64,000 bases of DNA from Candidatus Pelethousia sp. (lineage in GTDB: Bacteria; Bacillota; Clostridia; Christensenellales; CAG-138), in contig JAYFPE010000004.1 in NCBI GenBank assembly GCA_034928145.1, forward strand, positions 67,223-131,222, in the 5' to 3' direction. Position 1 is the stretch's first letter. Every line of letters begins with the position of its first letter. This document shows, piece by piece, positions 43,737 to 59,093 of this stretch. The notes under the pieces were generated by a model. It searched no databases. It was given only the letters and a program-made list of their open reading frames with translations, and was not told the origin of the DNA. A program made the translations under genes and the position numbers.

Positions 43737-44852
43737 TTATATCCAATCCCAGGCGAACTTTTTCTCCGGGCAGCGGGCCAGGCAGTAGCCGCAGCCCGAG
43801 CAGGCTTTTTGATCCAGAATGATCCTCCCGTCCGCATGACGGGTGATGGCGTCGTAAATGCAGCCCTGGCGGCAAATATCGCAATCCGTGGCGCAGGGCT
43901 TAAGGAGCTTGGCCCGCACGGGCCGGGGGCGGATATCCTCGAAGGGCTGAAGGGTGGAGAGGGCCACCCCCCGGATCTCGGAAAATCCGGCGTGGTCGTG
44001 CTGCTCCATCCAGGATTCCAATCCTTGGAGTACCTGGCCGATTACGTCATAACCCCAGATATGGATGGCGGAGGCGAGTTGGATGGTGGTCGCGCCCAAC
44101 ATGATAAATTCCAGGGCGTGCCTTGCTGTGGAAATGCCGCCGCAGCTGCAAATTTGAAAGGGCGTATATTGCTTGAGCATGGCGGTCGCCGCCAGGGAGA
44201 TGGGGCGAATATTTTCGGATGAATAGCCGCCGAAGGTGGGCATAAAGGTTTGTCTGTTTTCCAGATCAACGCCGCTAAGGCCCTTAAGGCAGTCGATGGC
44301 GGTAACGGCTTTGGCGCCCGCATCGTAAATCGTTTGCAACATTTCCGGGAAGAAACAGGCTTCGTAGGGCAGTTTAACAAACACGGGCAGGTCCGCAGCT
44401 TTCACGGCTGCCTCGACGATGTTAGCTGTGCGCTCGGGGTACGTGCTGTAGGAGCGGTAGCGCGTGCCTACCGGCGCGGAAAGGCTTAGCTCGATGGCGT
44501 CCGCGCCCATGCGCTCCACGCAGGCGGCCAAATAGCGCACTTCCGAGGCCGTTTCGCCCCAGATGCTACAGATGAGCTTGGCCCCATCCTTATCCAACGA
44601 GGCTAGGCCATTCTCCCATTGCTCTAGGTATTGGTGGGAATATAGCTTGACGTTAAAGAGTTGCGTGCCCTGCGCGTGCAGGTACGGGTGCAGGATGGGA
44701 TAGGTCTCCATAGCGATGGTCTCGGTCACCACCGCGCCGGCGCCGGCGTCAATGCATTTGCGCACGCCTTCCGTGCTGCCGGACCAGGGCCCCGCGGCGA
44801 CCATCACGGGATTCTTCAGCACCAGGCCCCCTAATTTAGCGGTCATGTTCAT
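43737..44852 (-). CDS. dihydroorotate / dihydropyrimidine dehydrogenase-like flavoprotein with a C-terminal 2x[4Fe-4S] ferredoxin domain (PreA-like)
   Basis: Start at the internal ATG at 44852 (AAGGGGGA upstream). The N-terminus LVLKNPVMVAAGPWSGSTEG...AGAVVTETI is class-1 DHOD-like, and the C-terminus has CSGCGYCLARCP plus CATDCDICRQGC. A hairpin CCCCGGC-ttt-GCCGGGG lies just downstream (43712-43730). Confidence 0.75.
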   Translation of the reverse strand: MNMTAKLGGLVLKNPVMVAAGPWSGSTEGVRKCIDAGAGAVVTETIAMETYPILHPYLHAQGTQLFNVKLYSHQYLEQWENGLASLDKDGAKLICSIWGETASEVRYLAACVERMGADAIELSLSAPVGTRYRSYSTYPERTANIVEAAVKAADLPVFVKLPYEACFFPEMLQTIYDAGAKAVTAIDCLKGLSGVDLENRQTFMPTFGGYSSENIRPISLAATAMLKQYTPFQICSCGGISTARHALEFIMLGATTIQLASAIHIWGYDVIGQVLQGLESWMEQHDHAGFSEIRGVALSTLQPFEDIRPRPVRAKLLKPCATDCDICRQGCIYDAITRHADGRIILDQKACSGCGYCLARCPEKKFAWDWI

Positions 44853-45023
44853 GCGTGTCCCCCTTAGCCGCCCACATATAAGCCGCCTCCGCCGAAGCGG
44901 CGTGTTTTGGGCGTTTTTGTGTGTTGTTATCGGTTGGAATCGTGCGGGGTCTACGGTGAGCGGCCTCAACAAAGCTACGGCGGTCTTTGCAGATCGGAGG
45001 CCGGCCCAGATTACGTGCGGTCG

Positions 45024-46046
45024 CTAATCGAATATCTCATAGATGAATTTCGTATTGCCGCAAGAATGGCGAACCTTTAGTTTGGGCTGCAGGATGATCT
45101 CCTGCCCGCCTTCTTCGGAAAAGATGCCGTCGATCCGGTCGATCAGCATGCGCGCGGCTACCATGCCCAGCTTCTTATTGGGCAGTTCCAGGGTAGTCAG
45201 CGCGGGGGTGATAAGGGAGGCTGCCGAGGAATCCGAAAGAGCGGCCAACGCCAGATCCGCGGGTATGCGGATGCCGGAAGCCTGGGCAGATTTGATTACG
45301 CCGAAGGCCTGCTCGTCGTTATAGGTGATAACGGCCCTTGGCAGGTTGCCGGATTGGATCATGCGCTGGGCAAAGAAGTACCCGCCCTGCAAGCCTAGGT
45401 CTACCTCGAAACGGCGGCTCTGCACGCATTCGCCCAGATCCGTCACGGCCTGGCTGAAGCCGTCGTAGATCATGGCGGATTCCTCGGGCAGCATATCGTT
45501 TAGCAGCAGGTCGATGGAGCGGTAGCCCATTTTAATGAGGTGGGTAGCCAGGCTATAAACGCCGTCTTTATAGTTGACGCAACAGGAATCATAGCCCAAT
45601 CGGCCCTGTTGCACCCCCACCAGCACCAACGGCAGGGACGTGCCGGTCAGCTCCGCGTAGCGCTGCTCGGAGAGCTTAGGGCCGGCCAGGATGATGCCGT
45701 CCACCTTGCGCTGGAGCACCATGCCGAGGTAATCTCCTTCGACTCTGGCATCGTGGCGCGTACCGCAGATGAACAGGCTGTAGCCCTTGTTGAGGGCCAC
45801 GGTCTCCGCGCCGGACATGACCATTTGGTATTTTTCGGACTCGATATCGGGCACAAAGAGAGCAATGGTCCTGGTTTTACCCAAGTTGAGGCCGCGGGCG
45901 AACCAGTTGGGGGTATAGTTATTGCGCTTCATGACCTCCAGCACACGATCCCGCGTATCCGCCTGCACAACTTCGGGATGGTTCAGCACACGAGATATAG
46001 TAGCCACCGAAACGCCGGCTTCTTTTGCGATCTCCCTGATATTCAA
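45024..46046 (-). CDS. LacI-family transcriptional regulator
   Basis: TTG start at 46046 (GGAGGG 7 nt upstream) gives LNIREIAKEAGVSVATISRVLNHPEVVQADTRDRVLEVMKRNNYTPN. The upstream part of ORF 45024-46169 looks non-coding. Confidence 0.85.
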   Translation of the reverse strand: MNIREIAKEAGVSVATISRVLNHPEVVQADTRDRVLEVMKRNNYTPNWFARGLNLGKTRTIALFVPDIESEKYQMVMSGAETVALNKGYSLFICGTRHDARVEGDYLGMVLQRKVDGIILAGPKLSEQRYAELTGTSLPLVLVGVQQGRLGYDSCCVNYKDGVYSLATHLIKMGYRSIDLLLNDMLPEESAMIYDGFSQAVTDLGECVQSRRFEVDLGLQGGYFFAQRMIQSGNLPRAVITYNDEQAFGVIKSAQASGIRIPADLALAALSDSSAASLITPALTTLELPNKKLGMVAARMLIDRIDGIFSEEGGQEIILQPKLKVRHSCGNTKFIYEIFD

Positions 46047-46340
46047 ACTAAAACCCTCCGCCCCGTGGCCATATCTGTATGGCTGAAAAGCATTTTCTAC
46101 AGTATAACACGCAGCGGGGCCGCAAACAAGCGCGCGGGCGGAAGCAAAAGGGTGCGCACGAAAGTTCACAGTTTTAATAAATGAAACCGCTTACAGGAGG
46201 ACCGCATAAAAATAATAAATCGGGGAATATATGCAGCAATTCCTGCCGGTTTCTCCTGCGGATTGCATAAAAAAACAAAACCCTGCTATGCCGAGGCCCC
46301 TATTGAAAGCTGACCGTGCGATGAATTTTTCTGCGGACTC

Positions 46341-46369
46341 TTGACATTGTCCGGAGAATGCGGTACATT
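46341..46369 (+). promoter_or_regulatory. sigma-A type promoter for the plus-strand catabolic island
   Basis: TTGACA (46341-46346), a 17-nt spacer, then TACATT (46364-46369). Confidence 0.55.
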
Positions 46370-46395: not shown

Positions 46396-46511
46396 TATCT
46401 TGGATCATCAAGCAAACGCTTCGCTCGGAAGCGGCGTCCACAGCAAACAAACGGCTCGGAAAAGAGCATTACCCATCGGCACGGGCCGGTTCAAGGGGAG
46501 AAAGAATTCAT

Positions 46512-46913
46512 ATGACACAAGAAGAAAAGGTATTTGCATTTTTTAAGGAGTGCGGCTCGTTTTTCTTTGCCAGCACAGAAGACGGCGAACCCCGCGTGCG
46601 GCCCTTTGGTTTTAAGATGCTATACGAGGGCAGGTTTTACTTTGGCATGGGCACGCATAAGCCCTCCTATAGGCAAACGGTGGCCAATCCGCATGTCGAG
46701 CTTTGCGCGCTCAAAGCGGACGGCAGCTTCCTGCGGGTGCGGGGCAAAGCAGTTTTGGATATGCGCGAGGGCGTGCAGGCGGAGATGTTCAAGACCTCGC
46801 CCAGCTTGCGCACATTATATAATGAAGAAAACGGCCGCATACAGGCCACCTTCTACCTGGAGGATATCGATGCGCGGGTGTATCGGGATGGCGAATATAC
46901 GCATCTGGATTGA
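46512..46913 (+). CDS. pyridoxamine 5'-phosphate oxidase-like FMN-binding protein
   Basis: 133 aa from the internal ATG at 46512. MTQEEKVFAFFKECGSFFFASTEDGEPRVRPFGFKMLYEGRFYFGMG...HVELCALK resembles the small PNPOx split-barrel family. Confidence 0.65.
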   Translation: MTQEEKVFAFFKECGSFFFASTEDGEPRVRPFGFKMLYEGRFYFGMGTHKPSYRQTVANPHVELCALKADGSFLRVRGKAVLDMREGVQAEMFKTSPSLRTLYNEENGRIQATFYLEDIDARVYRDGEYTHLD

Positions 46914-47054
46914 TCTGCCGTTTTGGTTGGCGCGGACGCGCCCGATCACAGCCACCTATGGATCATTTTAAAGGGCAGGCCGCCGGCGCGGGCGCCGCAT
47001 CGGCGGTTGGCTCTTTCAGTAAAAAACAATAACCAAACAGAGGAGGAAATCGGA

Positions 47055-47729
47055 ATGCTAAAAGACTACGACGTCATTATCGATGAAATGGAAGGTAAAC
47101 TGAGGCCGCCTACCGTAGGGATGGTACCCTATGAGCCCAAGGTGATACCGCTGACCACCGGCGAAGATATGCTGGTGCGCGAGGCTACGCGTGAAGAACT
47201 GGTGATGATCATGGACGCCATCGTGCCCCTGTTCAACCACCCGAAGGATTACTACGATATCGTAGCCGCTCGTATCTACACCGAAATCCTTGGCATGCTG
47301 CGTTATCGCGTGCAGGATGAGTACTTCTTCGTAGGCGCTGTGGATGGCGAGATCGCCGGCATCGTCAACGGTCGCTTGGTCAACGAAAAGGTCGGCATGT
47401 CCTACCACACGATGACGCTCAAGCGCGGCGTGCGCGTAGGCGCGCAGCTGTTTGCCGCCAAGATGGAATACCATTTCGATTTCATGAATCAGGACGAAGT
47501 CTTTATCGTGGCCGAATCCCCCAACGGCTTCAAGCGTTGGATGATCGAGTACGAGCTGGAGCCCCGGTTCGAGTGCCCCCACGAGCTGGGTGGCGTACCC
47601 ACCTTCGTGCTTACGCGCGCACTGTGGGAGAAGCATAAGGCAAATAAGAATGTTGGCATCCGGCCGGCGTTTGAGGACGTGATCGAGGCGAACAAGGTCC
47701 TGCGCATGCCTGCCAAGATCAACGTGTAA
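47055..47729 (+). CDS. hypothetical protein (weak GNAT-like acyltransferase resemblance)
   Basis: 224 aa from the ATG at 47055 (AGGAGG upstream). The central FFVGAVDGEIAGIVNGRL...TLKRGVRVGAQLF is reminiscent of a GNAT beta4-alpha3 region but is not a clean motif match. Confidence 0.5.
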   Translation: MLKDYDVIIDEMEGKLRPPTVGMVPYEPKVIPLTTGEDMLVREATREELVMIMDAIVPLFNHPKDYYDIVAARIYTEILGMLRYRVQDEYFFVGAVDGEIAGIVNGRLVNEKVGMSYHTMTLKRGVRVGAQLFAAKMEYHFDFMNQDEVFIVAESPNGFKRWMIEYELEPRFECPHELGGVPTFVLTRALWEKHKANKNVGIRPAFEDVIEANKVLRMPAKINV

Positions 47730-47750: not shown

Positions 47751-48947
47751 ATGCGAGAGGTGGGAATTGTTGGCATAGGCCACACAAAATTCGGCAAATC
47801 ATCGGTGCCGTATTTGGACATGTGCTGCAACGCAGCTTTGCAGGCAATGGATGACGCCGGCGCGAAGACGGGCCGAAAGAACGTGATCGACCAGGTGTTT
47901 GTTGGCACGATGGGCGCAGGCATGGTAAACCGTCTTAGCGGTGCGGCCTCTGCGGTCGTAGATACGCTTAACCTCCGCCCTGCCATGGCGGAAACCGTGG
48001 AGAACGGCCCGGCTTCCGGCGCATCCGCGCTCAAGCTTGGCTATGCGGCCATCGCTTCCGGCCTTTGCGACTGCGTGCTGATCATCGGCGGCGAGGCTAT
48101 GCGCGAAGTCACCGGCTGGGAAGGCACGGATTTCGTGGCGACCATGCTGCACCCCACAGGCGAATATCCCTACGGGCTGACCCTGCCCGCCTTCGCGGGC
48201 ATGTTTACCCGGTTGTGCATGGATAAATACGGCGTAACCAGCCGCGATCTGTCCATCGTATCGGTCAAGAACCATGATAACGCCTGCCTGAACCCCAATG
48301 CGCATATCCACTCCCGGGTGAAACTGGAGCGCATTACGGACGAGCGCTACATCGCGGCCACCAACCCGTTGGTTGCCGATCCGCTGCGTCAATATGATAT
48401 GTGCCCGGTGTCCGACGGCGCGGCGGCCCTGCTGCTGGTAGCCAAGGATAAGCAGGAGGAGCTGGGCTTCGGCCATAAGCCCTTCATCAAGGTGGCTGGT
48501 ATTGCTTCCGCTACCGATACCCATTATGTGGCCAACCGCGAAGAGCCCAGCGACCTATTGGCCGTGCGCCTCTCCGCACAGAAGGCTTACAAGATGGCGG
48601 GTGTGGGCCCGGAGGATATCGACGTGGCCGAGCTGCATGACGCCTTCCAGATCCTCGAGGTTGAAGAATCCGAGGAGACGGGCCTGTTCCCGCGCGGCAC
48701 CGGCCATCTGGCCGCCCGCGAAGGCAGAACTGCCCTGACCGGCGACATGCCCATCAATACCTCGGGCGGCCTCAAGGCAAAGGGGCATCCGCTGGGCGGC
48801 ACGGGCGTCTCGCAGATCGTGGAGCTGGTAAAGCAGCTGCGCGGCGAGGCGGGGGAACGCCAGGTGAAGGACGCCAAGACGGCGCTCGCCGTGAACTTCG
48901 GCGGTTTCGGCAACAACGTGGTTTCCACGGTACTGAAGGCAGAGTAA
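47751..48947 (+). CDS. SCP2-type thiolase-fold protein lacking both catalytic cysteines
   Basis: 398 aa with a thiolase-like layout and a GHP motif (KAKGHPLGG). The nucleophile CxS motif reads P87-A-S (VENGPASG) and the HDCF motif reads HDAF (A298). Confidence 0.8.
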   Translation: MREVGIVGIGHTKFGKSSVPYLDMCCNAALQAMDDAGAKTGRKNVIDQVFVGTMGAGMVNRLSGAASAVVDTLNLRPAMAETVENGPASGASALKLGYAAIASGLCDCVLIIGGEAMREVTGWEGTDFVATMLHPTGEYPYGLTLPAFAGMFTRLCMDKYGVTSRDLSIVSVKNHDNACLNPNAHIHSRVKLERITDERYIAATNPLVADPLRQYDMCPVSDGAAALLLVAKDKQEELGFGHKPFIKVAGIASATDTHYVANREEPSDLLAVRLSAQKAYKMAGVGPEDIDVAELHDAFQILEVEESEETGLFPRGTGHLAAREGRTALTGDMPINTSGGLKAKGHPLGGTGVSQIVELVKQLRGEAGERQVKDAKTALAVNFGGFGNNVVSTVLKAE

Positions 48948-48959
48948 GGGGGTAATAAA

Positions 48960-49325
48960 ATGGAACAGATGTATGCCTATAAATGCACAAAATGCGGCAA
49001 GCTGCACCATCCCCGTTATATCGTTTGCCAAAACCCGGATTGCGACAGCCGCGAATTTGAACAGGTGCCTCTGGAGGGCAAGTGCAAGCTGCTGACTTGG
49101 ACGCGCGTATATAACCTCCCGGAGGGCTACATGATGCCCTGGCTTAACTTTGGCATTGTGGAGTTTGAAAACGGCGTGCGCGCGACCGGCCAGATTGGCT
49201 TTGACGATGGGATCGAGAGCGGCATGGAGCTGGTTTCCACCGTAGGGGTGATCCGCAGCAAGGTCATCAAATACAAGGAAACCGTGGAAGAGCCTGTGTA
49301 CGGGTTCGTCTTCCAAAAGGCTTAA
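48960..49325 (+). CDS. DUF35-type Zn-ribbon / OB-fold protein
   Basis: 121 aa. The N-terminal rubredoxin-like CTKCG...CQNPDC is followed by an OB-fold-like segment. It lies immediately downstream of the thiolase-fold gene, the classical pairing. Confidence 0.75.
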   Translation: MEQMYAYKCTKCGKLHHPRYIVCQNPDCDSREFEQVPLEGKCKLLTWTRVYNLPEGYMMPWLNFGIVEFENGVRATGQIGFDDGIESGMELVSTVGVIRSKVIKYKETVEEPVYGFVFQKA

Positions 49326-49345: not shown

Positions 49346-50236
49346 ATGCTAAGGGCGGAGCGGCTATGTGCCGCATGGGAAAGCGCGCTCTTGGCAGGCG
49401 CGACGGAGGGATCGATCCACTCGGTGTTTGACCGGGCGGTGAACATCAACACTGCGGGGGGCATGGTTTCCTTGCTCCCCGCAGAAAAAGGCCTGTATCC
49501 CTGGTCCTGCACCGTGCAAATTAGCGCGCCGTTTTCGGCGCTGGGGTTAAAGCCGGGTATGCGGGCGGCAATCAGCCGCGCCGCGATGCGGGTGGACGAG
49601 GCGGGGTTCGCTGTCGATTTTTCCACCGCGCGGCCTACGAACCTTGATATCTGGCAACTGGCTCTTACCCAACTTCCCACGCAGGAGCGCCTAAGCGCCC
49701 TCAAAGCCCTTCTTTTCGCACAGGGCAGTACCGAGGGGATGCGCTCCCTGGCAGTGGGTGGGGCCGACAATCCTTTCAGCGCGATGATCCGGCCGAGGCT
49801 TTGCGCGCTGCACGCAGCGTTCCTTTCAGGGGAGCCGCAACAGGCGGGGCCGGCGGCCGCGGCGATCGCGGGCTGCGGGCCGGGGCTTACGCCCTCGTCG
49901 GATGATATGCTTTTGGGTTATGTGTGCGCCTTTTACGCACTAGCCCGGCAAGCCGGGCAGGCGCGTGAAGCGGCGCTGGCCATGGGCCGGGCCGCCTGCC
50001 GTGCGGCTGCCGCGAAAACGAACGCGATCAGCGGGGCCTTCCTGCTGCAATGCGGGGAGGGGCTGGCATCCCAAAACATGCTGGATCTTTTCAATGCTCT
50101 TTTTTCAGACGCGCTCGGGGAGCGACTAGAGGCGCCCGCGGGGCGCATCCTTTCCATAGGCGCCGCATCCGGCGCTGATATTCTTACAGGTGTTGTTCTT
50201 TCATTGCAAACTTTGCAAACGCATGGAACGAGGTGA
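49346..50236 (+). CDS. DUF2877-like protein (YlbF-type partner of FdrA)
   Basis: 296-aa Ala-rich protein containing GLTPSSDDMLLGY. Its stop overlaps the fdrA start. The assignment rests mainly on the conserved DUF2877-FdrA-DUF1116 neighbourhood. Confidence 0.55.
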   Translation: MLRAERLCAAWESALLAGATEGSIHSVFDRAVNINTAGGMVSLLPAEKGLYPWSCTVQISAPFSALGLKPGMRAAISRAAMRVDEAGFAVDFSTARPTNLDIWQLALTQLPTQERLSALKALLFAQGSTEGMRSLAVGGADNPFSAMIRPRLCALHAAFLSGEPQQAGPAAAAIAGCGPGLTPSSDDMLLGYVCAFYALARQAGQAREAALAMGRAACRAAAAKTNAISGAFLLQCGEGLASQNMLDLFNALFSDALGERLEAPAGRILSIGAASGADILTGVVLSLQTLQTHGTR

Positions 50237-51816
50237 ACAGATTGGTAAAGCTGGAAGTTCGCAAGAACGCGTATTATGATTCCGTGACCTTGATGATCAT
50301 TTCCAAGGATCTAAAAAAGCTGCCCGGCGTTTCACAGGCGCTGGTGGGCATGGGTACGGATCTCAACCGGGAACTGGCCCATGGCAGCGGCCTGGATGTG
50401 CCCGGCTTTGAGGCCGTAACAGCCAACGATTTCTTTGTAGCCGTCGAATGCGATGACGAGGCGGTCTTCAAAGCCTGCGTGGACAAGGTGGATGAATTGC
50501 TAAACAAGAAATCCGAGTCCAAGCAGGCTTCCTATTCTCCCCCCACGTTGGAGGGGGCGCTCAAAATCGATTCCGCACTGAACATGGCGGTAATCTCCGT
50601 GCCCGGCAAGCATGCGGCGGACGTCGCGCAGAGCTGCCTGGACCGTGACATCAACGTGATGCTCTTTTCGGACAACGTTACCATCGAAGAGGAAAAGGCG
50701 CTCAAGGAATATGCTAGTGCACACGAGCTTTTGGTGATGGGGCCGGATTGCGGCACAGCCATCATCAACCAGGTGCCTCTGGCCTTTGCCAACGTGGTGC
50801 GCAGCGGCAACATCGGCATCGTGGCCGCCAGCGGTACGGGCGCGCAGGAGGTCTCCTCCCTGATCGACCAGTTCGGCGGCGGCATTTCCCAGCTCTTTGG
50901 CACGGGCGGCCGGGATCTTAAAAAAGAGATCGGCGGCCTGATGATGAAGCTTTGCCTGGATGCCCTGATAAACGATCCGGCTACCAAGGTGCTGGTGCTG
51001 GTCTCCAAGCCCCCGGCCAAGGAGATCGCCGAGGAGATCCTCGGCATCGCCCAGGGTGCGGGCAAGCCGGTGGTAGTTTCCTTCATCGGCGGCGACCCGG
51101 AGCAGGTGCGCGCCTATGGCTTAACGCCGGCCCTCTCGCTGGAGGATGCGGCGCAAAAGGCCGTGGCCATCTCGCAGGGCAGGCAGCCGGAGGATTTTCT
51201 GGGCTTTAGCATGGGCGAAGAAAAGGCTGATGCGCTGGCTAAGGAGATTGCGGGCAAATTCGCGCCCGGTCAGCAATACATCCGCGGCTTCTATACCGGC
51301 GGCACCCTGTGTGACGAGGCTATGAAGCTGATGCTGGAGAAACTGGGCCATATTTACAGCAACATTCCCCTTCGAGCCGAGGATAAGCTCGAGAATCCCC
51401 GCAACGGCGATAGTTGCAAGCATACCTTCCTCGATTTCGGCGATGACGAATTCACGGTGGGTCGCCCCCATCCGATGATCGACCCGTCGCTTCGGGCGGA
51501 GCGCGTGGTTCACGACGGGCGCGATCCCGAGTGCGCCATCATCATGACCGATTGCGTCATCGGCTACGGCAGCCATCCGGACCCGGCGGAGGATCTGGCC
51601 GAGGCCATCCGCTCAGCGCGGGCCGAGGCGGAAGCGGCCGGGCGCTACCTGTGCTGCCTCGCCGCTGTTTGCGGCACGGAAGGGGATCCCCAGAGCCTGA
51701 GCAGAACCCGCCAGAAGCTTGAAGACGCGGGCGCTGTGGTGCTGCCTTCCAATGCGCAGGCCACCCGTTTCGCGCTGCGTATCTTGGCGCATCTCAACGG
51801 GGAGGGAACAAAATGA
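50233..51816 (+). CDS. fdrA: FdrA-family protein (succinyl-CoA-synthetase-alpha-like CoA-binding fold)
   Basis: 527 aa with a GTG start. KNAYYDSVTLMIISKDL, NVMLFSDNVTIEEE, VMGPDCGTAIINQVPLAFANVV, GIVAASGTGAQE, VSKPPA and GDDEFTVGRPHPMIDP match my recollection of FdrA. Confidence 0.8.
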   Translation: MNRLVKLEVRKNAYYDSVTLMIISKDLKKLPGVSQALVGMGTDLNRELAHGSGLDVPGFEAVTANDFFVAVECDDEAVFKACVDKVDELLNKKSESKQASYSPPTLEGALKIDSALNMAVISVPGKHAADVAQSCLDRDINVMLFSDNVTIEEEKALKEYASAHELLVMGPDCGTAIINQVPLAFANVVRSGNIGIVAASGTGAQEVSSLIDQFGGGISQLFGTGGRDLKKEIGGLMMKLCLDALINDPATKVLVLVSKPPAKEIAEEILGIAQGAGKPVVVSFIGGDPEQVRAYGLTPALSLEDAAQKAVAISQGRQPEDFLGFSMGEEKADALAKEIAGKFAPGQQYIRGFYTGGTLCDEAMKLMLEKLGHIYSNIPLRAEDKLENPRNGDSCKHTFLDFGDDEFTVGRPHPMIDPSLRAERVVHDGRDPECAIIMTDCVIGYGSHPDPAEDLAEAIRSARAEAEAAGRYLCCLAAVCGTEGDPQSLSRTRQKLEDAGAVVLPSNAQATRFALRILAHLNGEGTK

Positions 51817-53240
51817 GCAAGCTGAACGACCTGTTTACAAAAGATCTGCATGTGGTCAACCTGGGCATCGAATCCTTTGCGGAGGATCTGGCCTCCCAGG
51901 GCAAGAAGATCGTACATGTGAGCTGGAAGCCCGTCGCCGGCGGTGACAAGTTGGCCGCAGGCAACCTGCGCAAGCTCCAGGCCCCTGCCATGCAGGAAAA
52001 GATCAACGCGGCCAATGCGGAGGCTTTGCGCCGCATCCTCGACGCGCAGCCCGTGCTCGTGGGCATGGGCATCGCCCGCGATGTGATCCCCGGCATGACA
52101 GAGGATACCATCCTGCACGCAGGCCCTCCCGTCACCTGGGGGCGCATGTGCGGTCCGCAGCGGGGTGCGGTGATGGGCGGCCTCATTTACGAAGGCCGGG
52201 CTAAAACCCTGGAGGAGGCCGAAAAGCTGGCCGCCTCGGGCAAGATCCATTTCGACCCCTGCCATATGCACAGTGCGGTCGGCCCCATGGCGGGCGTGGT
52301 AACGCCCTCTATGCCGGTGTGGATCATCGAGAACAAGACCTTTGGCAACCGCGCCTATTGCACCATGAACGAGGGCCTGGGCAAGGTGCTGCGCTTTGGC
52401 GCGTGCGACCAGGAGGTTTTCGACAGGCTGCATTGGATGGCGGGCCATCTCTACCCGATTTTGAAGGCTGCTCTGGAGAGCAAGGGCGAGATCGACCTCA
52501 AGCTGCTGGTGGCCCAATGCTTGCAGATGGGCGACGAGGCGCATAACCGTAACAAGGCGGCTACCTCCCTGCTGATCCGCGAATTGGTGGGGCCGATTAT
52601 GGGGCTGGACGCGCCGATCCGCGAAAAGGCGGACGCGATCGCCTTCATCAACAGCAACGATCACACCTTCCTCAACCTCTCCATGCCGGCCATGAAGGCG
52701 ACGATGGATCCCATCTTCGGCATCCCTTACAGCACCATCGTGGCCACTATGTGCCGCAACGGCACGGATTTTGGCATCCGCATCGCCGGCCTCGGGCCGG
52801 ATCAATGGTTCACGGCGCAGGCGGAAATGGTGCAGGGCCTCTACTTCCCGGGCTTCACCGAGGAGGATGCGGCCCGTGACCTGGGCGATTCCTGCATTAC
52901 GGAAACGGCGGGCATCGGCGGCTTCTGCATGGCGGCAGCCCCGGCCATCGTGCAGTTTGTAGGCGGCCAGGTATCGGATGCGGTGAATTATTCGCTGCAG
53001 ATGTACGAGATTACCGAGGGCGAGAGCCGTATCTACAAGATCCCAGCGCTGGATTTCCGCGGCAGCGCTACGGGCATCGACCTGCTGAAGGTGATGCAGA
53101 CCGGCATCCGGCCTATTATCAACACGGGCATCGCGCATAAGGACTACGGCGTGGGCCAGGTGGGCGCGGGTCTGGTGCATCCCCCGGAGGATTGCTTCAA
53201 ACAGGCGCTGGCTGCCTGTGCCAAGGCTTGGACGGAATGA
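51813..53240 (+). CDS. DUF1116 protein (YlbE-like)
   Basis: 475 aa with an ATGA overlap with fdrA. ILHAGPP, CHMHSAVGPMAGV, NRAYCTMNEGLGKVLRFGA, GDSCITETAGIGGF and INTGIAHKDYGVGQVGAG resemble E. coli YlbE. Confidence 0.75.
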   Translation: MSKLNDLFTKDLHVVNLGIESFAEDLASQGKKIVHVSWKPVAGGDKLAAGNLRKLQAPAMQEKINAANAEALRRILDAQPVLVGMGIARDVIPGMTEDTILHAGPPVTWGRMCGPQRGAVMGGLIYEGRAKTLEEAEKLAASGKIHFDPCHMHSAVGPMAGVVTPSMPVWIIENKTFGNRAYCTMNEGLGKVLRFGACDQEVFDRLHWMAGHLYPILKAALESKGEIDLKLLVAQCLQMGDEAHNRNKAATSLLIRELVGPIMGLDAPIREKADAIAFINSNDHTFLNLSMPAMKATMDPIFGIPYSTIVATMCRNGTDFGIRIAGLGPDQWFTAQAEMVQGLYFPGFTEEDAARDLGDSCITETAGIGGFCMAAAPAIVQFVGGQVSDAVNYSLQMYEITEGESRIYKIPALDFRGSATGIDLLKVMQTGIRPIINTGIAHKDYGVGQVGAGLVHPPEDCFKQALAACAKAWTE

Positions 53241-53278: not shown

Positions 53279-54079
53279 ATGAGCAAATGGTCTGACATCA
53301 AGATGTACGAGCTTTCGATCCCCATCGGCATCAATACCCCCCCGTGGCCCACTTATGAGCCCCTGCAAATGAAATTCTTCAAGCGGCTTGCCCCCAACGG
53401 CGCAAACGGCCAGCTCTTGACGCACTCCAACCATGTGGGTACACACCTGGACGGCCCGCTGCACTTTGATACCGCCGGCCGCGATATCGCTTCCCTAGAG
53501 CTCACCAAGCTCTGCGCCCCTGGCGCTGTGGTTGATCTGAGCGATCAGGCCGAGGACTGGGGCATCTACACCCCCGCCGATATCGAAAAGCGCGTAGAAG
53601 TAAAAGAGGGCGATATCCTCATTATCAACACCGGCTATCATAAGTACGGCTGGGATTCCCCCACTGCGGACGAGCGCCGCTATATGCTGCGCCACCCCGG
53701 CCCCTCGCTGGATTTTGTCAATTGGGTACGCGAAAAGAAGATCAAGTGGATCGGCGTGGACTGCGGCAGCGCGGACCATCCCATGAACACCAAGATCCGC
53801 GATTGGGAGCCCATGGAAGCCAAGGCCTGTGATGCCGTGTTCCAGAAGCGCTACGGCAAGGCGCTCAACGAGGTTTATCCCTGGCCGGAGCACTATCAGG
53901 CCATGCATATTGAGCTCTTCTGCAAGCCCTATGAGGCCATCCATGCGGAGTGCCTGGGCGGCGAGATCGACAAACTGAGCAACAAGCGCGTTGTAATCGG
54001 CTGCTTCCCCTGGAAGTTGGTAGACGGCGAAAGCTGCATCAGCCGTATCGTCGCGTTTGACGGGTTCGACGACGTTTAA
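53279..54079 (+). CDS. putative cyclase-family metal hydrolase (kynurenine formamidase / isatin hydrolase-like)
   Basis: 266 aa with the family motif HVGTHLDGPLH, and later GVDCGSADHP. Confidence 0.75.
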   Translation: MSKWSDIKMYELSIPIGINTPPWPTYEPLQMKFFKRLAPNGANGQLLTHSNHVGTHLDGPLHFDTAGRDIASLELTKLCAPGAVVDLSDQAEDWGIYTPADIEKRVEVKEGDILIINTGYHKYGWDSPTADERRYMLRHPGPSLDFVNWVREKKIKWIGVDCGSADHPMNTKIRDWEPMEAKACDAVFQKRYGKALNEVYPWPEHYQAMHIELFCKPYEAIHAECLGGEIDKLSNKRVVIGCFPWKLVDGESCISRIVAFDGFDDV

Positions 54080-54088
54080 AAGTATGTA

Positions 54089-54126
54089 CCGAGGGCCGAC
54101 AGCTAGCACTTGCTGCCGGCCCTCGG
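54089..54126 (+). terminator. strong intercistronic hairpin, possibly a partial terminator
   Basis: CCGAGGGCCGACAGC-tagcactt-GCTGCCGGCCCTCGG (14 of 15 bp), followed 6 nt later by GGTTTTGGG. Confidence 0.5.
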
Positions 54127-54174
54127 CAATTGGTTTTGGGATCCCCCACAAAGAGAGCAATGGAGGAATGAAAC

Positions 54175-55380
54175 ATGGCATATGATCTGCTGATCACCAA
54201 CGCGCGTACCCGTGCAAGCAAGGGGGAATTGCTTCAAATTGGCATACAGGATGGCAAAATCGCGGCCATCGCACCCTCGCTCACAGGCGGGGCGGGCCAG
54301 GTGCTCGATGCCGGCGGCGGGTTGGTCACGGAATCCTTCGTTAACGGCCACCTGCACCTGTGCAAGGTCTATACCTTAGAGATGGCTGGCCAGGCCGCAC
54401 TGGGCGAATACCATCATGGCGGCATGGGCGGCGCAATGACTGCTATCGAGCGCGCGGCGGATTTTAAGGCAGCGTACGATGAGAGCTGGATCCTGCCCAA
54501 TGTGCGGCGTGTGTGCGAACTGGCGTTGCATTATGGCAACACCCATATCAGGGCTTTTGCGGATGTGGATTCCAAGGCCCGATTGGAGGGCATTAAGGCG
54601 CTGTTAAAAGCCCGAGAGGAATATAAAGGCAGGGTAGAGCTGCAGGTGGTGGCCTTCCCGCAGGATGGGGTGGAGCGCGAACCCGCCGCGGAAGACTATG
54701 TGAAGCAGGCGCTGGAAATGGGCGCGGATGTGGTGGGCGGTATCCCCTGGATCGAGTTCACCAAGGCGGACGAGCAGGCGCATGTAGATAAAATGTTCGA
54801 TCTGGCGGTGAAATACAATAAAAATGTATCCATGCTGCTGGACGACGTGGGCGATGCGGATGAGAAAACGCTGGAGATGGCTGCTACCCGTGCCATTCAG
54901 GAAGGCTGGCAGGGCCGCATTACGGCGCAGCATTGCCGTGCCATGGCCCTCTACGATGAGAACTATTTCCGCAAACTAGTTTCCCTGCTCAAAAAGGCGG
55001 GCATCGGCCTGGTGGCCGATCCGCACACCGGCCCGCTGCATGCCCGCGTGCGTGACCTGGTAGCGGCCGGTATACCCGTGGCCCTCGGCCAGGATGACGT
55101 GGCGGACGCTTACTATCCCTATGGCCGCTGCAACATGCTGGAGATCGCCTTCCTGGCTTCCCACCTGATGTGGATGACCTCGTTTGAGGATATGGAAACC
55201 CTGTATGATATGATAACCACCTCTGCTGCCAAGGTGCTGGGCATCAAGGGCCATGTGCTGGAGGTGGGCGGCAACGCCGATCTGGTGGTGCTCAAAGCGC
55301 AGGATGTGTATCACGCCATCTGGGAGCATGAAGCGCCGCTGTATGTAATCAAGGACGGCAAGGATGTGACTTCCCGCTAA
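54175..55380 (+). CDS. CodA-family amidohydrolase (cytosine deaminase / AtzC-like) with non-canonical active-site residues
   Basis: 401 aa. It aligns without gaps to E. coli CodA across GADVVGGIPWIEFT...TAQHCRAM. HxH (NGHLHL), Q156, H246 and the DD motif are retained, but the residues aligned with H214 and E217 are Leu221 and Asp224. Confidence 0.8.
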   Translation: MAYDLLITNARTRASKGELLQIGIQDGKIAAIAPSLTGGAGQVLDAGGGLVTESFVNGHLHLCKVYTLEMAGQAALGEYHHGGMGGAMTAIERAADFKAAYDESWILPNVRRVCELALHYGNTHIRAFADVDSKARLEGIKALLKAREEYKGRVELQVVAFPQDGVEREPAAEDYVKQALEMGADVVGGIPWIEFTKADEQAHVDKMFDLAVKYNKNVSMLLDDVGDADEKTLEMAATRAIQEGWQGRITAQHCRAMALYDENYFRKLVSLLKKAGIGLVADPHTGPLHARVRDLVAAGIPVALGQDDVADAYYPYGRCNMLEIAFLASHLMWMTSFEDMETLYDMITTSAAKVLGIKGHVLEVGGNADLVVLKAQDVYHAIWEHEAPLYVIKDGKDVTSR

Positions 55381-55445: not shown

Positions 55446-57764
55446 ATGGCATTTAAGACCATAGGCGCCAGCCCCAAGCGGGTGGATGGCGTAGAAAAAG
55501 TAACGGGTTCTACCCAATATACAGCCGATATGCAGTTCCCAAACCTGCTGCATATTAAGGTGTTGCGCTCCCCCCATGCCCACGCCAGGATATTGAATGT
55601 GGATACGGCGGAGGCTTCGGCTGTGCCGGGCGTGGTGCGGATCGTAACGGGCAAAGACGTGCCCGGTCCCTTTGGGGTGGCCGTGCGCGACCAGGACCCG
55701 ATCGCCAAGAGCAAGGTGCGTTTCGTGGGCGAACCTGTGGCCGCGGTGGTGGCGCGCAGTGAGCGCGAGGCCCTGCGCGCGCTGAAAAAGATTAAAGTTG
55801 AATACGAGCAGCTCCCCTTTGTGCTGGATGCCTGGGAGGCCAAAGACCCTTCCTCGCCTGTGTTGCATGAGGGGCTGATGGATTACTTCGTGCTGCCCTA
55901 TGTGCATCGCGAAGGCCATAATACATATCAGCATTTCAAGGTGCGCAAAGGGAACGCGGAGGCCGCGATGGCCAAGGCGGATTGCGTGGTGGAGGGCGAG
56001 TATACCTTCCCTTCCATCGTGCACACGCAAATGGAGACGCATTGCGCCGTGGCCCGCTACGGCCAGGATGAGTCGATGGTGATGTACGCCACCACCCAGG
56101 CCCCCTTTGTGGTACAGACAACCATTTCGGAGCTGCTGGAGATCCCCTATAACCGCATCCGCGTGGTTGCGCCCTTGTTGGGCGGCGGTTTTGGCGGCAA
56201 GTCGGATATTACGATCGAGGCGCTGGTGGCCTGTGTGGCCAGGCTGGTGCCCGGGCGTTATGTAAGGCTGCTCTTGAGCCGCGAGGAGCTGTTTTGCGGC
56301 ACCACGCACGGCCGCAATGCCAGCTGCCGTTACAGGCTGGGCTTTGATAAGGGCGGCAAGCTGCTGGCCATGATGGGCGAAGGCGCCATGGCGAGCGGCG
56401 GCAACGCGGATTATGCGGTGAACATTCTCACGGGCATGGCTTCGGCAGGCACAGGCCCTTACCGGGTGGATGACCTTAAGCTCGACATGTACGGCGTGTA
56501 TACCAACACCCCGCCCATCGGCGCGGCCCGCGGCTACGGCCACCCGGAGGTACACCTTGCCGTGGAAAGCTTAATGGACGTGGCGGCGGAAAAGCTGGGC
56601 ATCACACCGGCCGCGATTCGGCTGCAAAACCTGCTTAGGGCAGGCTACGCCAACGGCATCGGCCAGGTGATGCACGAAGCCAACGGCAATGTGGTCAGGT
56701 GTACCGAAATCATTGCCGAGAAGCTCTTTGTTGCGCCTAAGCCCGATCTCGGGCCGCATATCACCGTGGGCCGCGGTATGGCATCGTATATGAAAACACC
56801 CTGCATGCCTACCAATACGCCCTCCGGCGCGTTCATCAAGCTGAATTCAGACGGAACCGTTAGCATGTGTACCGGCGCAGTGGATATGGGCCAAGGCCTG
56901 CATACGGCGCTGGCGCAGATCGGCGCGGAAGCGCTTGGCCTGCCCTTTGAAAAGGTGCGTTTCCAATACAGTGTGGATACGCTCACCTCCCCTTACGACT
57001 GGCAGACCGTGGCCAGCCATTCTACCTGGGGCGCCGGCAATGCCGCGATCCTGGCGGCGGAGGATCTCAAGCGCAAGCTACGGGAGGAAGGGGCCAAGGT
57101 GTTCGGCGTGCCCGCCGAAGAAGTAGTCGCCGAGGCGGGCGCGGTGCGCTATCAGGATCGCGCCATCGGCTGGAGCGAATTCGCCACCGGCATCCGCAAT
57201 CCGGATGGCTCGGCCCTCACCAAGCCGGTGATGGGCGAGGGCTACTTCGTACCCGAAGGCATCCAGAACCACGACCCGGAAACGGGCCAGGGCAACGCCG
57301 CCGCGGATTGGACGCTGGGCTGCGTGGGCGCGGAGGTGGCGGTGGATCAGCGCACGGGCGAGGTCACCGTGCTGCGCCTTATCAACGCCATCGACGCCGG
57401 CACTATCATTAACCCGACTCTGGCCAAAGAGCAGGTGAGCGGGGCCATGCTGATGGCAGCGGGCAGCGTGCTGAGCGAGACCGTGGTCTATGATGAAAAA
57501 ACGGGCCGCGTGCGCAACAACACGCTGGTGGATTACAAGATACCCGGCATCGAGGATATCCCCTGTGAAACAGAGGTGATCTTCGTGCAAACGCCGGAGG
57601 ATTCGGGCCCATATGGGGCCAAGGGCATCGGCGAGCACGGCGCCGTGGGTACGGCTCCGGCCCTGCTCAACGCCATTTACGACGCTACGGGCCTCAGGTT
57701 CCATACGCTTCCCGCTTCTGCGGATCGGATCACCGTGCTGCGCAAGGGAGGTGACGCCAGATGA
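55446..57764 (+). CDS. xanthine dehydrogenase-family molybdopterin-binding large subunit
   Basis: 772 aa. Contains KRVDGVEKVTGSTQYTAD, GGGFGGKSD and a C-terminal GAKGIGEHGAVG segment with the catalytic Glu context. Confidence 0.9.
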   Translation: MAFKTIGASPKRVDGVEKVTGSTQYTADMQFPNLLHIKVLRSPHAHARILNVDTAEASAVPGVVRIVTGKDVPGPFGVAVRDQDPIAKSKVRFVGEPVAAVVARSEREALRALKKIKVEYEQLPFVLDAWEAKDPSSPVLHEGLMDYFVLPYVHREGHNTYQHFKVRKGNAEAAMAKADCVVEGEYTFPSIVHTQMETHCAVARYGQDESMVMYATTQAPFVVQTTISELLEIPYNRIRVVAPLLGGGFGGKSDITIEALVACVARLVPGRYVRLLLSREELFCGTTHGRNASCRYRLGFDKGGKLLAMMGEGAMASGGNADYAVNILTGMASAGTGPYRVDDLKLDMYGVYTNTPPIGAARGYGHPEVHLAVESLMDVAAEKLGITPAAIRLQNLLRAGYANGIGQVMHEANGNVVRCTEIIAEKLFVAPKPDLGPHITVGRGMASYMKTPCMPTNTPSGAFIKLNSDGTVSMCTGAVDMGQGLHTALAQIGAEALGLPFEKVRFQYSVDTLTSPYDWQTVASHSTWGAGNAAILAAEDLKRKLREEGAKVFGVPAEEVVAEAGAVRYQDRAIGWSEFATGIRNPDGSALTKPVMGEGYFVPEGIQNHDPETGQGNAAADWTLGCVGAEVAVDQRTGEVTVLRLINAIDAGTIINPTLAKEQVSGAMLMAAGSVLSETVVYDEKTGRVRNNTLVDYKIPGIEDIPCETEVIFVQTPEDSGPYGAKGIGEHGAVGTAPALLNAIYDATGLRFHTLPASADRITVLRKGGDAR

Positions 57765-58615: not shown

Positions 58616-59093
58616 GGTGCGGGTCTGTATGCAGGTTAATGGCCTGCGCATTGAAACCGAGGTGGATCCGGCGCAAACGCTTTTGCAGTTTATCCGCGAA
58701 GATTTGGGGCTGACCGGCACCAAGTCCGGCTGTGAAAACGGCGAATGCGGCGCCTGCACGGTGCTGATGGACGGCAAGCCGGTGCGCTCCTGCATCATCC
58801 TGGCCGCGGAGGCCGATGGCAGCGAGATCGTGACGGTGGAAGGCTTAGCCGGCGAGGAAAAGCTTCACCCTGTGCAGCAGGCGTTTATCGACCATAGCGC
58901 TGTGCAATGCGGCTTTTGCATACCGGGCGTGCTGGTGGCTTCCAAGGCCCTGCTGGACCGCCATCCAAACCCTTCTGAGGAAGATGTTTTAGAGGCGCTG
59001 GGCGGGCATCTATGCCGCTGCGGCGGCTACAAGGCCATGAGTGAGGCCGTAAAAACCGCGGCCGGGGCCATGGCGAAGCAGGACGAATCATAA
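58608..59093 (+). CDS. molybdenum hydroxylase [2Fe-2S] small subunit
   Basis: About 161 aa; a GTG at 58599 is an alternative start. CENGECGACTV is the plant-type cluster and CGFCIPG...CRCGGY the second cluster. Confidence 0.9.
   Translation: MHKVRVCMQVNGLRIETEVDPAQTLLQFIREDLGLTGTKSGCENGECGACTVLMDGKPVRSCIILAAEADGSEIVTVEGLAGEEKLHPVQQAFIDHSAVQCGFCIPGVLVASKALLDRHPNPSEEDVLEALGGHLCRCGGYKAMSEAVKTAAGAMAKQDES

Follow-up and report, generated by a model that had tools for sequence, protein, structure and literature searches.

DUF35 proteins are known to act as scaffolds, holding a thiolase-like subunit together with the enzyme of an adjacent step (PMC12329534; PMC12960953). In the archaeal thiolase/HMG-CoA synthase/DUF35 complex, a free-standing DUF35 protein bridges a thiolase with a CxS nucleophile to a third enzyme, the thiolase-fold HMG-CoA synthase, in the context of mevalonate biosynthesis. 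In the steroid side-chain systems Ltp2-ChsH2 (6ok1) and Sal-Shy, which have no nucleophilic Cys, DUF35 is fused to the MaoC hydratase of the preceding step. The characterised members of this group of aldolases have as their defining feature a catalytic Tyr that opens the xDxF motif (YDHF in TcLtp2, YDCY in CtSal), and also need Tyr344 or the motif Cys, the latter being catalytic in CtSal (PMC12329534). PhlABC and MucABC are three-component thiolase-like/DUF35 systems repurposed from the ACAT complex, in which a catalytic Cys (Cys88/Cys87) is acetylated, HDxF is lost, and the third subunit is HMGS-like (PMC12960953).

A second set of described enzymes is relevant because its homologues adjoin the genes studied here. 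Enzymes of the oxamate-carbamoyltransferase type convert an acyl-urea to carbamoyl phosphate. Their representative in E. coli, AllFGH, phosphorolyses the acyl-urea oxalurate, and its operon is described as allF, allG, allH, and allK, with thiolase-like, DUF35, GNAT, cyclase, and XDH genes missing from the list (PMC11326118).

Genes of the operon and its surroundings

The window, i.e. the whole 64,000-nucleotide stretch that was analysed, contains a thiolase-like gene placed between a formerly unannotated gene and a DUF35 gene, followed by homologues of AllH, AllF, and AllG. Features of the region are as follows.

43737..44972, - strand: PreA-like (dihydropyrimidine/dihydroorotate dehydrogenase-type) Fe-S flavoprotein (Pfam DHO_dh and Fer4; NCBIfam PreA 167 bits, below cutoff)
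45024..46169, - strand: divergent LacI-family regulator (Pfam)
46341..46369, + strand: promoter-like site TTGACA-17-TACATT before the operon (consensus scan, 10/12)
46509..46913, + strand: PNPOx-like small flavoprotein, first gene of the operon (Pfam PNPOx_N, 35.9 bits)
47052..47729, + strand: GNAT-fold (acyl-CoA N-acyltransferase-like) protein, 225 aa, formerly unannotated (AF2 and Foldseek)
47751..48947, + strand: Cys-less thiolase-like protein, 398 aa, archaeal ACAT/SCP2-like type (Pfam Thiolase_N and Thiolase_C_1)
48009..48011, + strand: codon CCG of Pro87 at the nucleophilic-Cys position, motif N-G-P-A-S-G (HMMER alignment and DNA reading)
48636..48647, + strand: H296-D297-A298-F299, the HDxF motif, with His kept and the acid/base Cys replaced by Ala298
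48783..48791, + strand: G345-H346-P347, the kept GHP motif (KAKGHPLGG aligned to GHP)
48960..49325, + strand: free-standing DUF35 protein, 121 aa, zinc ribbon and OB fold (Pfam zf-ChsH2, NCBIfam BbsA)
49346..50236, + strand: AllH-like (DUF2877) subunit (Pfam AllH, 74.8 bits)
50233..51816, + strand: AllF/FdrA-like subunit, a relative of succinyl-CoA-synthetase alpha (NCBIfam FdrA, 485 bits against a cutoff of 433)
51813..53240, + strand: AllG-like (DUF1116) subunit (Pfam AllG, 321 bits)
53279..54079, + strand: cyclase-family metal hydrolase (PF04199, arylformamidase-like; Pfam Cyclase, 121 bits)
54087..54128, no strand assigned: 17-bp GC-rich terminator-like hairpin
54175..55380, + strand: cytosine-deaminase-like amidohydrolase (Pfam Amidohydro_3; NCBIfam cytosine deaminase subfamily 272 bits, below cutoff)
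55446..59093, + strand: xanthine-dehydrogenase-family molybdenum hydroxylase (Pfam)
59180..63842, + strand: UrtABCDE-like ABC transporter with a diverged binding protein (UrtB and UrtD above cutoff)

All three AllFGH-type subunits are encoded together in the window, in a tight operon spacing with 4-nt overlaps between the AllH stop and the AllF start and between AllF and AllG. The AllF/FdrA-like protein combines the Pfam domains CoA_binding and Ligase_CoA, and the cyclase-family protein is a candidate ring-opening hydrolase or amidase. The hairpin that follows it probably marks the operon end. In metagenome run X8, a contig of a close relative (~ 96% identical) jumps from 54168 to 58740. At the other end, promoter-like sites in the region do not exceed in number the expectation from shuffling, and the one listed above is weak evidence. 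The PNPOx-like gene, absent from 80 related loci, opens the operon in this strain only, and the LacI-family regulator was found only in the closest relatives (L001-L003 among the related loci). No Rfam match was obtained in the whole window, and thus no riboswitch or other RNA element that would reveal the ligand.

Downstream of the hairpin, the cytosine-deaminase-like amidohydrolase is predicted to be an accessory feeder module. The molybdenum hydroxylase is comprised of Mo (55446-57764), FAD (57761-58615), and 2Fe-2S (58599-59093) subunits; it scores below every NCBIfam equivalog cutoff and is 47% identical to the second Moorella enzyme versus 39% to the first. In the transporter, UrtC and UrtE fall just below their cutoffs and UrtA reaches 343 against a cutoff of 493. 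Its predicted solute is urea or a urea-like compound.

A thiolase-like protein without catalytic cysteines

The thiolase-like gene has an AGGAGG ribosome-binding site 8 nt 5' of its ATG. The AF2 model of the product (pLDDT 94.8) shows the thiolase alpha-beta-alpha-beta-alpha fold. Its best matches are acetoacetyl-CoA thiolase of Methanothermococcus thermolithotrophicus (6esq/6et9) and PFC_04095 of Pyrococcus furiosus (7yvy), with 34-38% identity, TM 0.92, and shared HDxF and GHP motifs. The best curated model, NCBIfam PRK06064, gives 356 bits, below its cutoff of 420. Measured against DUF35-associated ACAT/SCP2-like thiolases, the protein has the fold, the GHP histidine, and an adjacent DUF35 gene, and lacks the nucleophilic Cys, the HDCF Cys, and a score at the curated cutoff.

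The initial annotation described changes from CxS to PAS and from HDCF to HDAF with GHP retained, and all three statements are borne out. The codons around Pro87 are gag aac ggc CCG gct tcc ggc, and in HMMER alignments with solved thiolases this residue falls on the nucleophilic Cys (‘ieaaCASG’ in 7yvy and ‘veaaCASG’ in 6esq versus ‘vengPASG’ in the query). Ala298 (codon 48642-48644, in gag ctg cat gac GCC ttc) is aligned to the Cys of ‘HDCF’ in 6esq and 6hsj, where the query has ‘HDAF’. Both changes recur in 81 of 81 homologues, and KGHP is invariant. Archaeal thiolases keep the CxS nucleophile, in contrast to the Pro found here, which in the AF2 model occupies the N-cap position of helix 89-102. 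An acyl-enzyme cannot be formed once Cys87 is replaced by Pro, so that classical thiolysis and Claisen condensation are out, in accordance with the earlier opinion that they are unlikely. Pro also lacks a backbone NH, which would take away half of the second oxyanion hole. In thiolases, the pair of histidines equivalent to His296 and His346 polarises the thioester carbonyl and stabilises the enolate.

None of the 81 genomic homologues (57-95% identity) departs from P87, H296, A298, or H346, or from the motifs NGPASG, ELHDAF, and KGHP. The homologues come from Bacillota, Coriobacteriales, Treponema, Lentisphaerae, Verrucomicrobiota, and others. Within the four catalytic loops, 78% of positions (29/37) are invariant, compared to 21% in the whole protein, which argues for a working pocket and not for decay, and makes a degenerating pseudogene or pseudoenzyme unlikely. 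Judged from the sequences, the Cys substitutions are far beyond chance and not accidental. HDAF alone is not unusual, because Ala is also present in the Pyrococcus thiolase 7yvy and in 29 of 78 Cys-containing cluster representatives. Family-specific invariant residues in the active-site loops are His134, Tyr139, Asn205, His258, Phe383, Phe386, Asn388, and Asn389; from their loop positions, we infer that these polar and aromatic residues lie near the active site. A catalytic Cys shifted by a few residues, named in the initial annotation as a finding that would refute its view, was rejected. The sole invariant Cys is C218 in the motif CPxSDG, which is shared by half of the Cys-containing relatives, and no replacement was found.

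In a neighbour-joining tree, all Pro-type proteins are placed within a clade of 40 leaves, every one of them devoid of the nucleophilic Cys. This clade includes Sulfolobus tokodaii ST0096 (4yzo), which is also among the nearest structures and is 34-35% identical to the query, with TM 0.83 when normalised by the query and 0.91-0.95 when normalised by the target. ST0096 has Ser in place of the nucleophile and Met within its HDxF motif, as opposed to Pro and Ala here, and we know of no function assigned to it. The gene in the window is an intact and strongly constrained member of this old Cys-less branch of archaeal-type acetoacetyl-CoA thiolases. A genome scan with one genome per species revealed at least 533 confirmed genomic stretches with relatives. 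Cultivable carriers are Moorella thermoacetica, Anaerocolumna aminovalerica DSM 1283, and Clostridium magnum. Among distant Pro-type representatives, one occupies a methanogen-like locus without GNAT.

The three-gene module and its metabolic context

The DUF35 partner reported previously is indeed retained, as ORF 48960-49325. In addition to its Pfam and NCBIfam assignments, it matches the PDB chains 6esq_E and 7pxp_A, and also 6htj. Its zinc cysteines C9, C12, C23, and C28 (48984-49043) are all invariant in 79 of 79 homologues. The protein encoded 5' of the thiolase-like gene gave no match at the sequence level in Pfam, NCBIfam, or PDB (phmmer). Foldseek matched its AF2 model (pLDDT 90.9) to over 50 GNAT structures, each with probability 1.0 and at target-normalised TM of 0.55-0.66. 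An invariant G126-x-R-x-G-A segment is located at the beta4-alpha3 position, and some of its UniRef relatives are named ‘N-acetyltransferase domain’ proteins.

The GNAT gene is positioned directly 5' of the thiolase-like gene in 71 of 80 loci, and in 37 of the 38 with long flanks; the DUF35 gene accompanies the thiolase-like gene in all 38. GNAT-fold, thiolase-like, and free-standing DUF35 genes, with the thiolase-like gene in the middle, make up a conserved, uncharacterised three-gene module. A metatranscriptome contig of 2250 nt spans the GNAT 3' end, the thiolase-like and DUF35 genes, and the AllH start. We found no paper that describes this module or its gene cluster. The GNAT partner alone comprises about 1,700 protein clusters at 90% identity. 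An Oscillospiraceae subclade keeps the thiolase-like/DUF35 pair without GNAT. In L066, a small Acetyltransf_1 gene is located 3' of the pair, and hhalign detected no homology between it and the GNAT-fold protein. In one subclade (2 loci), a gene of the FabD-like malonyl-transferase family lies directly 5' of the pair, an observation in favour of malonyl chemistry.

AllF, AllG, and cyclase genes occur with the trio in 34 of the 38 long-flank loci, and XDH in 25. The permease cluster is found in 20 loci and a PucR regulator in 18. The NCBIfam equivalog model for uracil permease gives 643-650 bits, well over its cutoff of 477, and the Moorella locus includes a carbamate kinase above the NCBIfam cutoff, comparable to AllK of E. 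coli. Taken together, AllFGH, cyclase, XDH, uracil permease, PucR, and the Moorella carbamate kinase point to anaerobic oxidative pyrimidine/ureide catabolism. Based on gene content, the surrounding operon reads as a putative, uncharacterised anaerobic pathway for oxidative pyrimidine/ureide degradation. The nitrogen-heterocycle cluster of an anaerobic member of Bacillota proposed in the initial annotation is upheld and can be refined accordingly to a pyrimidine/ureide cluster. The AllFGH-like enzyme probably acts on an acyl-urea other than the substrate of E. coli AllFGH. In the literature on barbiturase, ureidomalonate, uracil dehydrogenase, and anaerobic molybdenum enzymes, no such pathway was found described, and the paper on the reductive uric-acid pathway makes no reference to thiolase, DUF35, FdrA, or cyclase.

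The window itself carries the Urt-like transporter in place of a uracil permease, and a Pfam scan of its ORFs of at least 200 aa did not find carbamate kinase. Both observations speak against a pyrimidine reading. In some phyla the trio is situated among housekeeping genes without XDH or AllFGH (L070 and L074), and L083 is devoid of AllFGH. These contexts indicate that the reaction of the module is not strictly tied to the pyrimidine operon.

Candidate reactions of the module

The reading that we favour, tentatively and with doubt slightly outweighing belief, is that a malonyl-type intermediate is decarboxylated or cleaved at a C-C bond, without thiolysis and with stabilisation of an enolate, jointly with the GNAT subunit, as the context of a pyrimidine/ureide operon suggests. 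The malonyl unit would originate from C4-C5-C6 of hydroxylated uracil, as barbiturate, ureidomalonate, or a malonyl or malonamoyl thioester. Using the kept His296/His346 pair for enolate stabilisation, the thiolase-like protein would decarboxylate this unit, or split it in a retro-Claisen reaction driven by water or phosphate, leaving an acetyl unit. DUF35 would bridge it to the GNAT subunit in a complex, and this subunit may shuttle the acyl group between a ureide or amide nitrogen and CoA. The ureido part would pass to the AllFGH-like enzyme and carbamate kinase, yielding ATP.

Some observations concern this chemistry directly. Besides the nucleophile, the acid/base Cys is gone, and an enolate needs a proton donor, which is a point against C-C cleavage. 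The sole precedent for a Cys-less thiolase-like decarboxylase is TbSLP with malonyl-CoA, an extremely slow reaction with a kcat of 0.005 per second, and TbSLP is now suspected to be an aldolase (PMC12329534).

Retro-aldol cleavage of a 3-hydroxyacyl-CoA to an aldehyde or ketone and acetyl- or propionyl-CoA, by a DUF35-held enzyme of the Ltp2/Sal type, was the function assigned in the initial annotation, where loss of both cysteines was regarded as the aldolase hallmark. That generalisation did not hold, given that CtSal uses its motif Cys and that the large Cys-less clade is unrelated to steroid aldolases. The protein resembles Ltp2 and Sal in its thiolase fold (TM 0.83 to 6ok1), the missing nucleophilic Cys, and the DUF35 partner, and His296 could in principle serve as a base. 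However, the catalytic Tyr of YDHF/YDCY is His here, Cys304 of Sal corresponds to Ala298, and Tyr344 of Ltp2 to His346, the latter inferred from an identical 50-residue spacing. By the motif correspondence of PMC12329534, the xDxF Tyr and the second catalytic residue are absent. A MaoC-supplied DUF35 is absent too. DUF35 is a separate protein, and no hydratase or other MaoC-domain gene was present among the scanned window genes or the Pfam-annotated related loci. Furthermore, Ltp2 is only the 13th sequence match (E 1e-26) and the 34th structural match, the nearest being archaeal acetoacetyl-CoA thiolases; Ltp2 and Sal are ~ 25% identical to the protein, belong to a different clade, and act in beta-oxidation, as opposed to nucleobase/ureide metabolism. 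We consider a retro-aldolase highly improbable.

The three-component architecture itself recalls PhlABC and MucABC, which modify CoA-free cyclic 1,3-dicarbonyl rings. By analogy, the module could be a C-acyl transferase or C-deacylase whose target is the acidic C5 of barbiturate or another cyclic 1,3-dicarbonyl, with GNAT taking over from the acyl-Cys and carrying the acyl group to or from CoA. Barbiturate would be the expected product of uracil hydroxylation by the molybdenum enzyme, a planar heterocycle would fit the remodelled pocket with its many Phe, Asn, and His residues, and PhlC and MucB are structural neighbours (TM 0.85-0.87). Yet these two have the Cys and lack HDxF, exactly the opposite of the family described here, whose third subunit is a GNAT and not HMGS-like. 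No catabolic purpose for C-acylation is obvious, and this function appears decidedly improbable. A role limited to scaffolding, in which the thiolase-like and DUF35 proteins only organise or stabilise GNAT or AllFGH and perhaps still bind CoA, is also improbable, if less sharply so. It would explain the absence of both catalytic cysteines, and inactive thiolase-fold subunits such as HMGS-like PhlA and MucA do scaffold related complexes (PMC12960953). In one variant, GNAT would acetylate urea or a ureide to an acyl-urea phosphorolysed by AllFGH, with which the Urt-like, urea-type transporter in the window is consistent. Nevertheless, the former catalytic loops are the most conserved part of the protein (78% versus 21% invariant), both oxyanion-hole histidines are invariant across several phyla, and the Oscillospiraceae pair persists with no GNAT to support.

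The favoured enolate-stabilising cleavage can be extended to a more specific proposal, which we find rather unlikely in its full form. The trio would then be a new three-component enzyme for Cys-free, CoA-/phosphate-dependent C-N and C-C cleavage of malonyl-urea (barbiturate/ureidomalonate), and together with the AllFGH-type transcarbamylase and carbamate kinase it would provide strict anaerobes with ATP from pyrimidines.

Thiolase/DUF35 complexes are an emerging platform that has been repurposed repeatedly, for mevalonate synthesis, steroid aldolases, and Friedel-Crafts acylases. The family presented here would be a fourth solution, with Pro at the nucleophile position, kept oxyanion-hole histidines, and a GNAT third subunit, and in place of mevalonate biosynthesis its setting is nucleobase/ureide catabolism. 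For the broader Cys-less clade, including the orphan structure 4yzo, it suggests a function that can be tested. The operon represents a concrete candidate for anaerobic oxidative degradation of pyrimidines, from uracil to barbiturate. If this is true, the recently discovered transcarbamylase chemistry of AllFGH would be extended beyond allantoin, and gut Christensenellaceae, Flavonifractor, and the acetogen Moorella would possess a previously undescribed, energy-conserving oxidative pyrimidine pathway.

Loss of the catalytic cysteines and its conservation

The thiolase-like gene, its DUF35 partner and the upstream gene are arranged as follows:

47052-47729, + strand: GNAT-fold protein (225 aa, predicted fold), directly upstream of the thiolase-like gene
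47751-48947, + strand: thiolase-like protein (398 aa; Pfam Thiolase_N and Thiolase_C_1)
48009-48011, + strand: Pro87 codon (CCG)
48642-48644, + strand: Ala298 codon (GCC)
48960-49325, + strand: DUF35 protein (121 aa; Pfam ChsH2-type zinc ribbon, NCBIfam BbsA match)

In HMMER residue-level alignments against solved thiolases, Pro87 falls at the position of the nucleophilic Cys and Ala298 at that of the Cys in HDCF, while KGH346P coincides with the GHP motif. The DUF35 protein, encoded after a gap of 12 nt, aligns with its counterpart subunits in the archaeal thiolase/HMGCS complex and in benzoylsuccinyl-CoA thiolase. Alignments, codons and Pfam/NCBIfam matches confirm, at the coordinates given there, the initial annotation, in which Cys was lost from both CxS and HDCF while the DUF35 partner was kept. 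The nearest NCBIfam model, PRK06064 (an archaeal-type "thiolase domain-containing protein"), is matched below its cutoff (356 vs 420 bits). In the predicted structure, Pro87 occupies the N-cap position of the helix on which Cys is normally found; in thiolases, Pro at the nucleophile position also deprives the second oxyanion hole of one backbone NH. The protein is unable to form an acyl-enzyme, and the suggested non-thiolytic function therefore holds. Both His of the enolate-stabilising oxyanion hole (His296/His346) are kept.

Scanning one genome per species revealed at least 533 matched stretches encoding relatives, and the best 80 of them (57-95% identity; 81 sequences in all) were analysed. 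Carriers among these 80 loci include Christensenellaceae, Oscillospiraceae, Clostridium, Neomoorella and Peptococcaceae in Bacillota, and, beyond this phylum, Coriobacteriales, Treponema, Lentisphaerae, Kiritimatiellae, Verrucomicrobiota and others. N-G-P-A-S-G, E-L-H-D-A-F, K-G-H-P and N-F-G-G-F-G are invariant in 81/81 sequences. Constraint on the protein is strongest in the four loops that were once catalytic, where 29 of 37 positions are invariant vs 21% over the whole protein. Family-specific invariant residues in these loops are His134 (Asp in Cys-type relatives), Tyr139, Asn205, His258, Phe383, Phe386, Asn388 and Asn389. A catalytic Cys shifted by a few residues was also considered. The sole invariant Cys is C218, in a CPxSDG motif; many Cys-containing relatives have it too, which rules it out as a relocated nucleophile.

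In a set of ~130 sequences, each representing a 50%-identity cluster, the residue at the nucleophile position is Cys (78), Ser (23), Pro (9), Asp (7) or Gly (5), and Ala in HDxF is frequent even where Cys is present. A neighbour-joining tree places every Pro-type sequence within a 40-leaf clade that has no member with Cys and takes in the Ser/Met type, of which the orphan Sulfolobus structure ST0096 (4yzo) is a representative. Some Ser/Ala members of the clade carry a C-terminal extension of ~120-150 residues, with a sub-threshold match to OB_ChsH2_C (DUF35 OB-fold) in two of the five examined. Loss of Cys is ancient, fixed and under purifying selection. A Pro-type gene (VENGPASG, HDAF; protein P0123, 46% identity) was also found in a methanogen-like archaeal locus (L086), adjoining a trp operon and followed by a 94-aa ORF, with no GNAT; Pro-type proteins therefore occur outside the bacterial module too.

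Gene neighbourhood in the window and in related loci

Pfam, NCBIfam and PDB sequence searches with the 225-aa upstream protein gave no match. Its predicted structure is a GNAT domain (pLDDT 90.9), paired by Foldseek with dozens of GNATs at probability 1.0. The gene is as conserved as the thiolase-like gene (~1,700 clusters) and lies immediately upstream of it in 71/80 loci; among the 38 with at least 7 kb of flank on both sides (long loci), 37 show this order. In an Oscillospiraceae subclade, the thiolase-like/DUF35 pair is found without GNAT. Two of its loci (L066, 9035-12068; L057, 8856-11394) have a FabD-like Acyl_transf_1 gene preceding the pair, with a small Acetyltransf_1 gene after the pair in L066. 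The presence of this malonyl-transferase-family gene at the GNAT position in two loci lends weak support to a malonyl substrate.

Downstream of the DUF35 gene are AllH-, AllF(FdrA)- and AllG-like genes with 4-nt overlaps, and then a cyclase-family hydrolase gene; these accompany the trio of GNAT, thiolase-like and DUF35 genes in 34/38 long loci, and xanthine-dehydrogenase-type (XDH) hydroxylases do so in 25/38. Three further recurrent neighbours emerged from clustering: a 2Fe-2S subunit in 23 loci, an NCS2 permease in 20 and a PucR-type regulator in 18; the permease passes the NCBI uracil permease equivalog cutoff (643-650 vs 477 bits). The AllH-like gene (49346-50236) changes far faster than its neighbours: relatives with thiolase-like, AllF and AllG proteins >80% identical have AllH scores of just 140-190 bits, and for those further away the scores are no more than 30-90 bits.

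The most complete version of the cluster is that of Moorella thermoacetica (L085; CP017237, 2207016-2227663), a genetically and biochemically tractable acetogen. Its order is AllF, AllG, cyclase, XDH, uracil permease, PucR, GNAT, thiolase-like, DUF35, cytosine-deaminase-like, NCS1 permease, second XDH and carbamate kinase. The window hydroxylase is of the second Moorella type.

In the window, the operon's first gene, PNPOx-like, has a promoter-like site ahead of it, a PreA-like gene is divergent upstream, and a strong 17-bp hairpin (54087-54128) follows the cyclase gene. In a metatranscriptome, a 96%-identical strain is represented by a contig running from the GNAT 3' end through the thiolase-like gene and DUF35 to the AllH start, with DNA carry-over possible. 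In metagenome run X8, a contig of a close relative (~96% identical) joins 54168 straight to 58740 and thus has no amidohydrolase, Mo subunit or FAD subunit genes. Together with the hairpin, this suggests that 54168-58740 is a separately acquired feeder module. Further downstream lies a transporter:

59180-63842: UrtABCDE-like ABC transporter; permease UrtB and ATPase UrtD pass urea-transporter cutoffs

The binding protein is far below its cutoff (343 vs 493 bits), and the solute may be a urea derivative, not urea. Most related loci have a uracil permease instead.

Elsewhere in the window, a large flagellar and chemotaxis block (187-25000; FliR/FlhB/FlhA, FlhF, MinD-like ATPase, sigma factor, FapA, rod proteins, FlgK, two flagellins) is unrelated to the thiolase-like finding. 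One protein (28962-30776, minus strand) unusually combines a SpoIID domain with a type I dockerin domain at its C-terminus, a hint of a cellulosome-related host. ORFs 42901-43146 and 43059-43547 overlap in different frames and are, judging translations by eye, probably N- and C-terminal parts of one glycosyltransferase, a frameshifted pseudogene.

Pathway context and proposed role

In E. coli, AllFGH is an oxamic transcarbamylase that converts oxalurate (an acyl-urea) and phosphate into carbamoyl phosphate and oxamate, and is coupled to carbamate kinase (PMC11326118). The gene set combines uracil and cytosine uptake, deaminase and molybdenum hydroxylases with a hydrolase for a ring or amide, an acyl-urea transcarbamylase and carbamate kinase. 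Its best reading is an anaerobic and oxidative route for pyrimidines/ureides, in keeping with the nitrogen-heterocycle cluster originally proposed. Hydroxylated uracil (barbiturate, i.e. malonyl-urea) would be opened to malonyl-ureide, whose ureido part would yield carbamoyl phosphate. Our literature search found no paper describing such a pathway.

By sequence and fold, the nearest proteins are ACAT of the archaeal thiolase/HMGCS/DUF35 complex, Pyrococcus thiolase 7yvy and ST0096, with Ltp2, TbSLP, PhlC and MucB farther away. Assignment to the Ltp2-type aldolases, as put forward earlier, does not stand. The defining features of the steroid side-chain aldolases Ltp2/Sal are a catalytic Tyr in YDHF/YDCY, Tyr344 or a motif Cys, and a DUF35 domain fused to MaoC hydratase (PMC12329534), and the thiolase-like protein has none of these. 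In the C-acyltransferase subunits PhlC and MucB, Cys is kept, HDxF is lost and the partner is an HMGS-like subunit (PMC12960953); the present family is the mirror image, with Cys lost, HDxF kept and GNAT as partner. It thus follows the style of these repurposed complexes, yet belongs to none, and the Pro-type, GNAT-partnered, Cys-less ACAT-like enzyme is a new variant.

DUF35 proteins have a documented scaffold role, holding a thiolase-like subunit against the enzyme that carries out a neighbouring step (PMC12329534; PMC12960953). Considering this role, the lost acyl-enzyme, the kept His pair, the constrained loops and their new residues, we propose that GNAT and thiolase-like subunits may form a DUF35-bridged complex. 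GNAT would shift an acyl group between ureide or amide nitrogen and CoA, and His296/His346 of the thiolase-like subunit would stabilise the enolate in a non-thiolytic C-C cleavage (decarboxylation or retro-Claisen), turning a malonyl into an acetyl unit. That the protein is a functional subunit of a conserved module and pathway context is likely, and it is probably catalytic but non-thiolytic. Counting against the proposed role, the trio lies among housekeeping genes in some loci and lacks AllFGH in others. Specific malonyl cleavage is a tentative and rather doubtful assignment, and the very weak decarboxylase precedent of TbSLP argues against it (PMC12329534).

The analysis brings to light an enzyme module that is widespread yet uncharacterised, together with a candidate pathway for pyrimidines in anaerobes, and cultivable hosts of the module exist that are open to direct tests.
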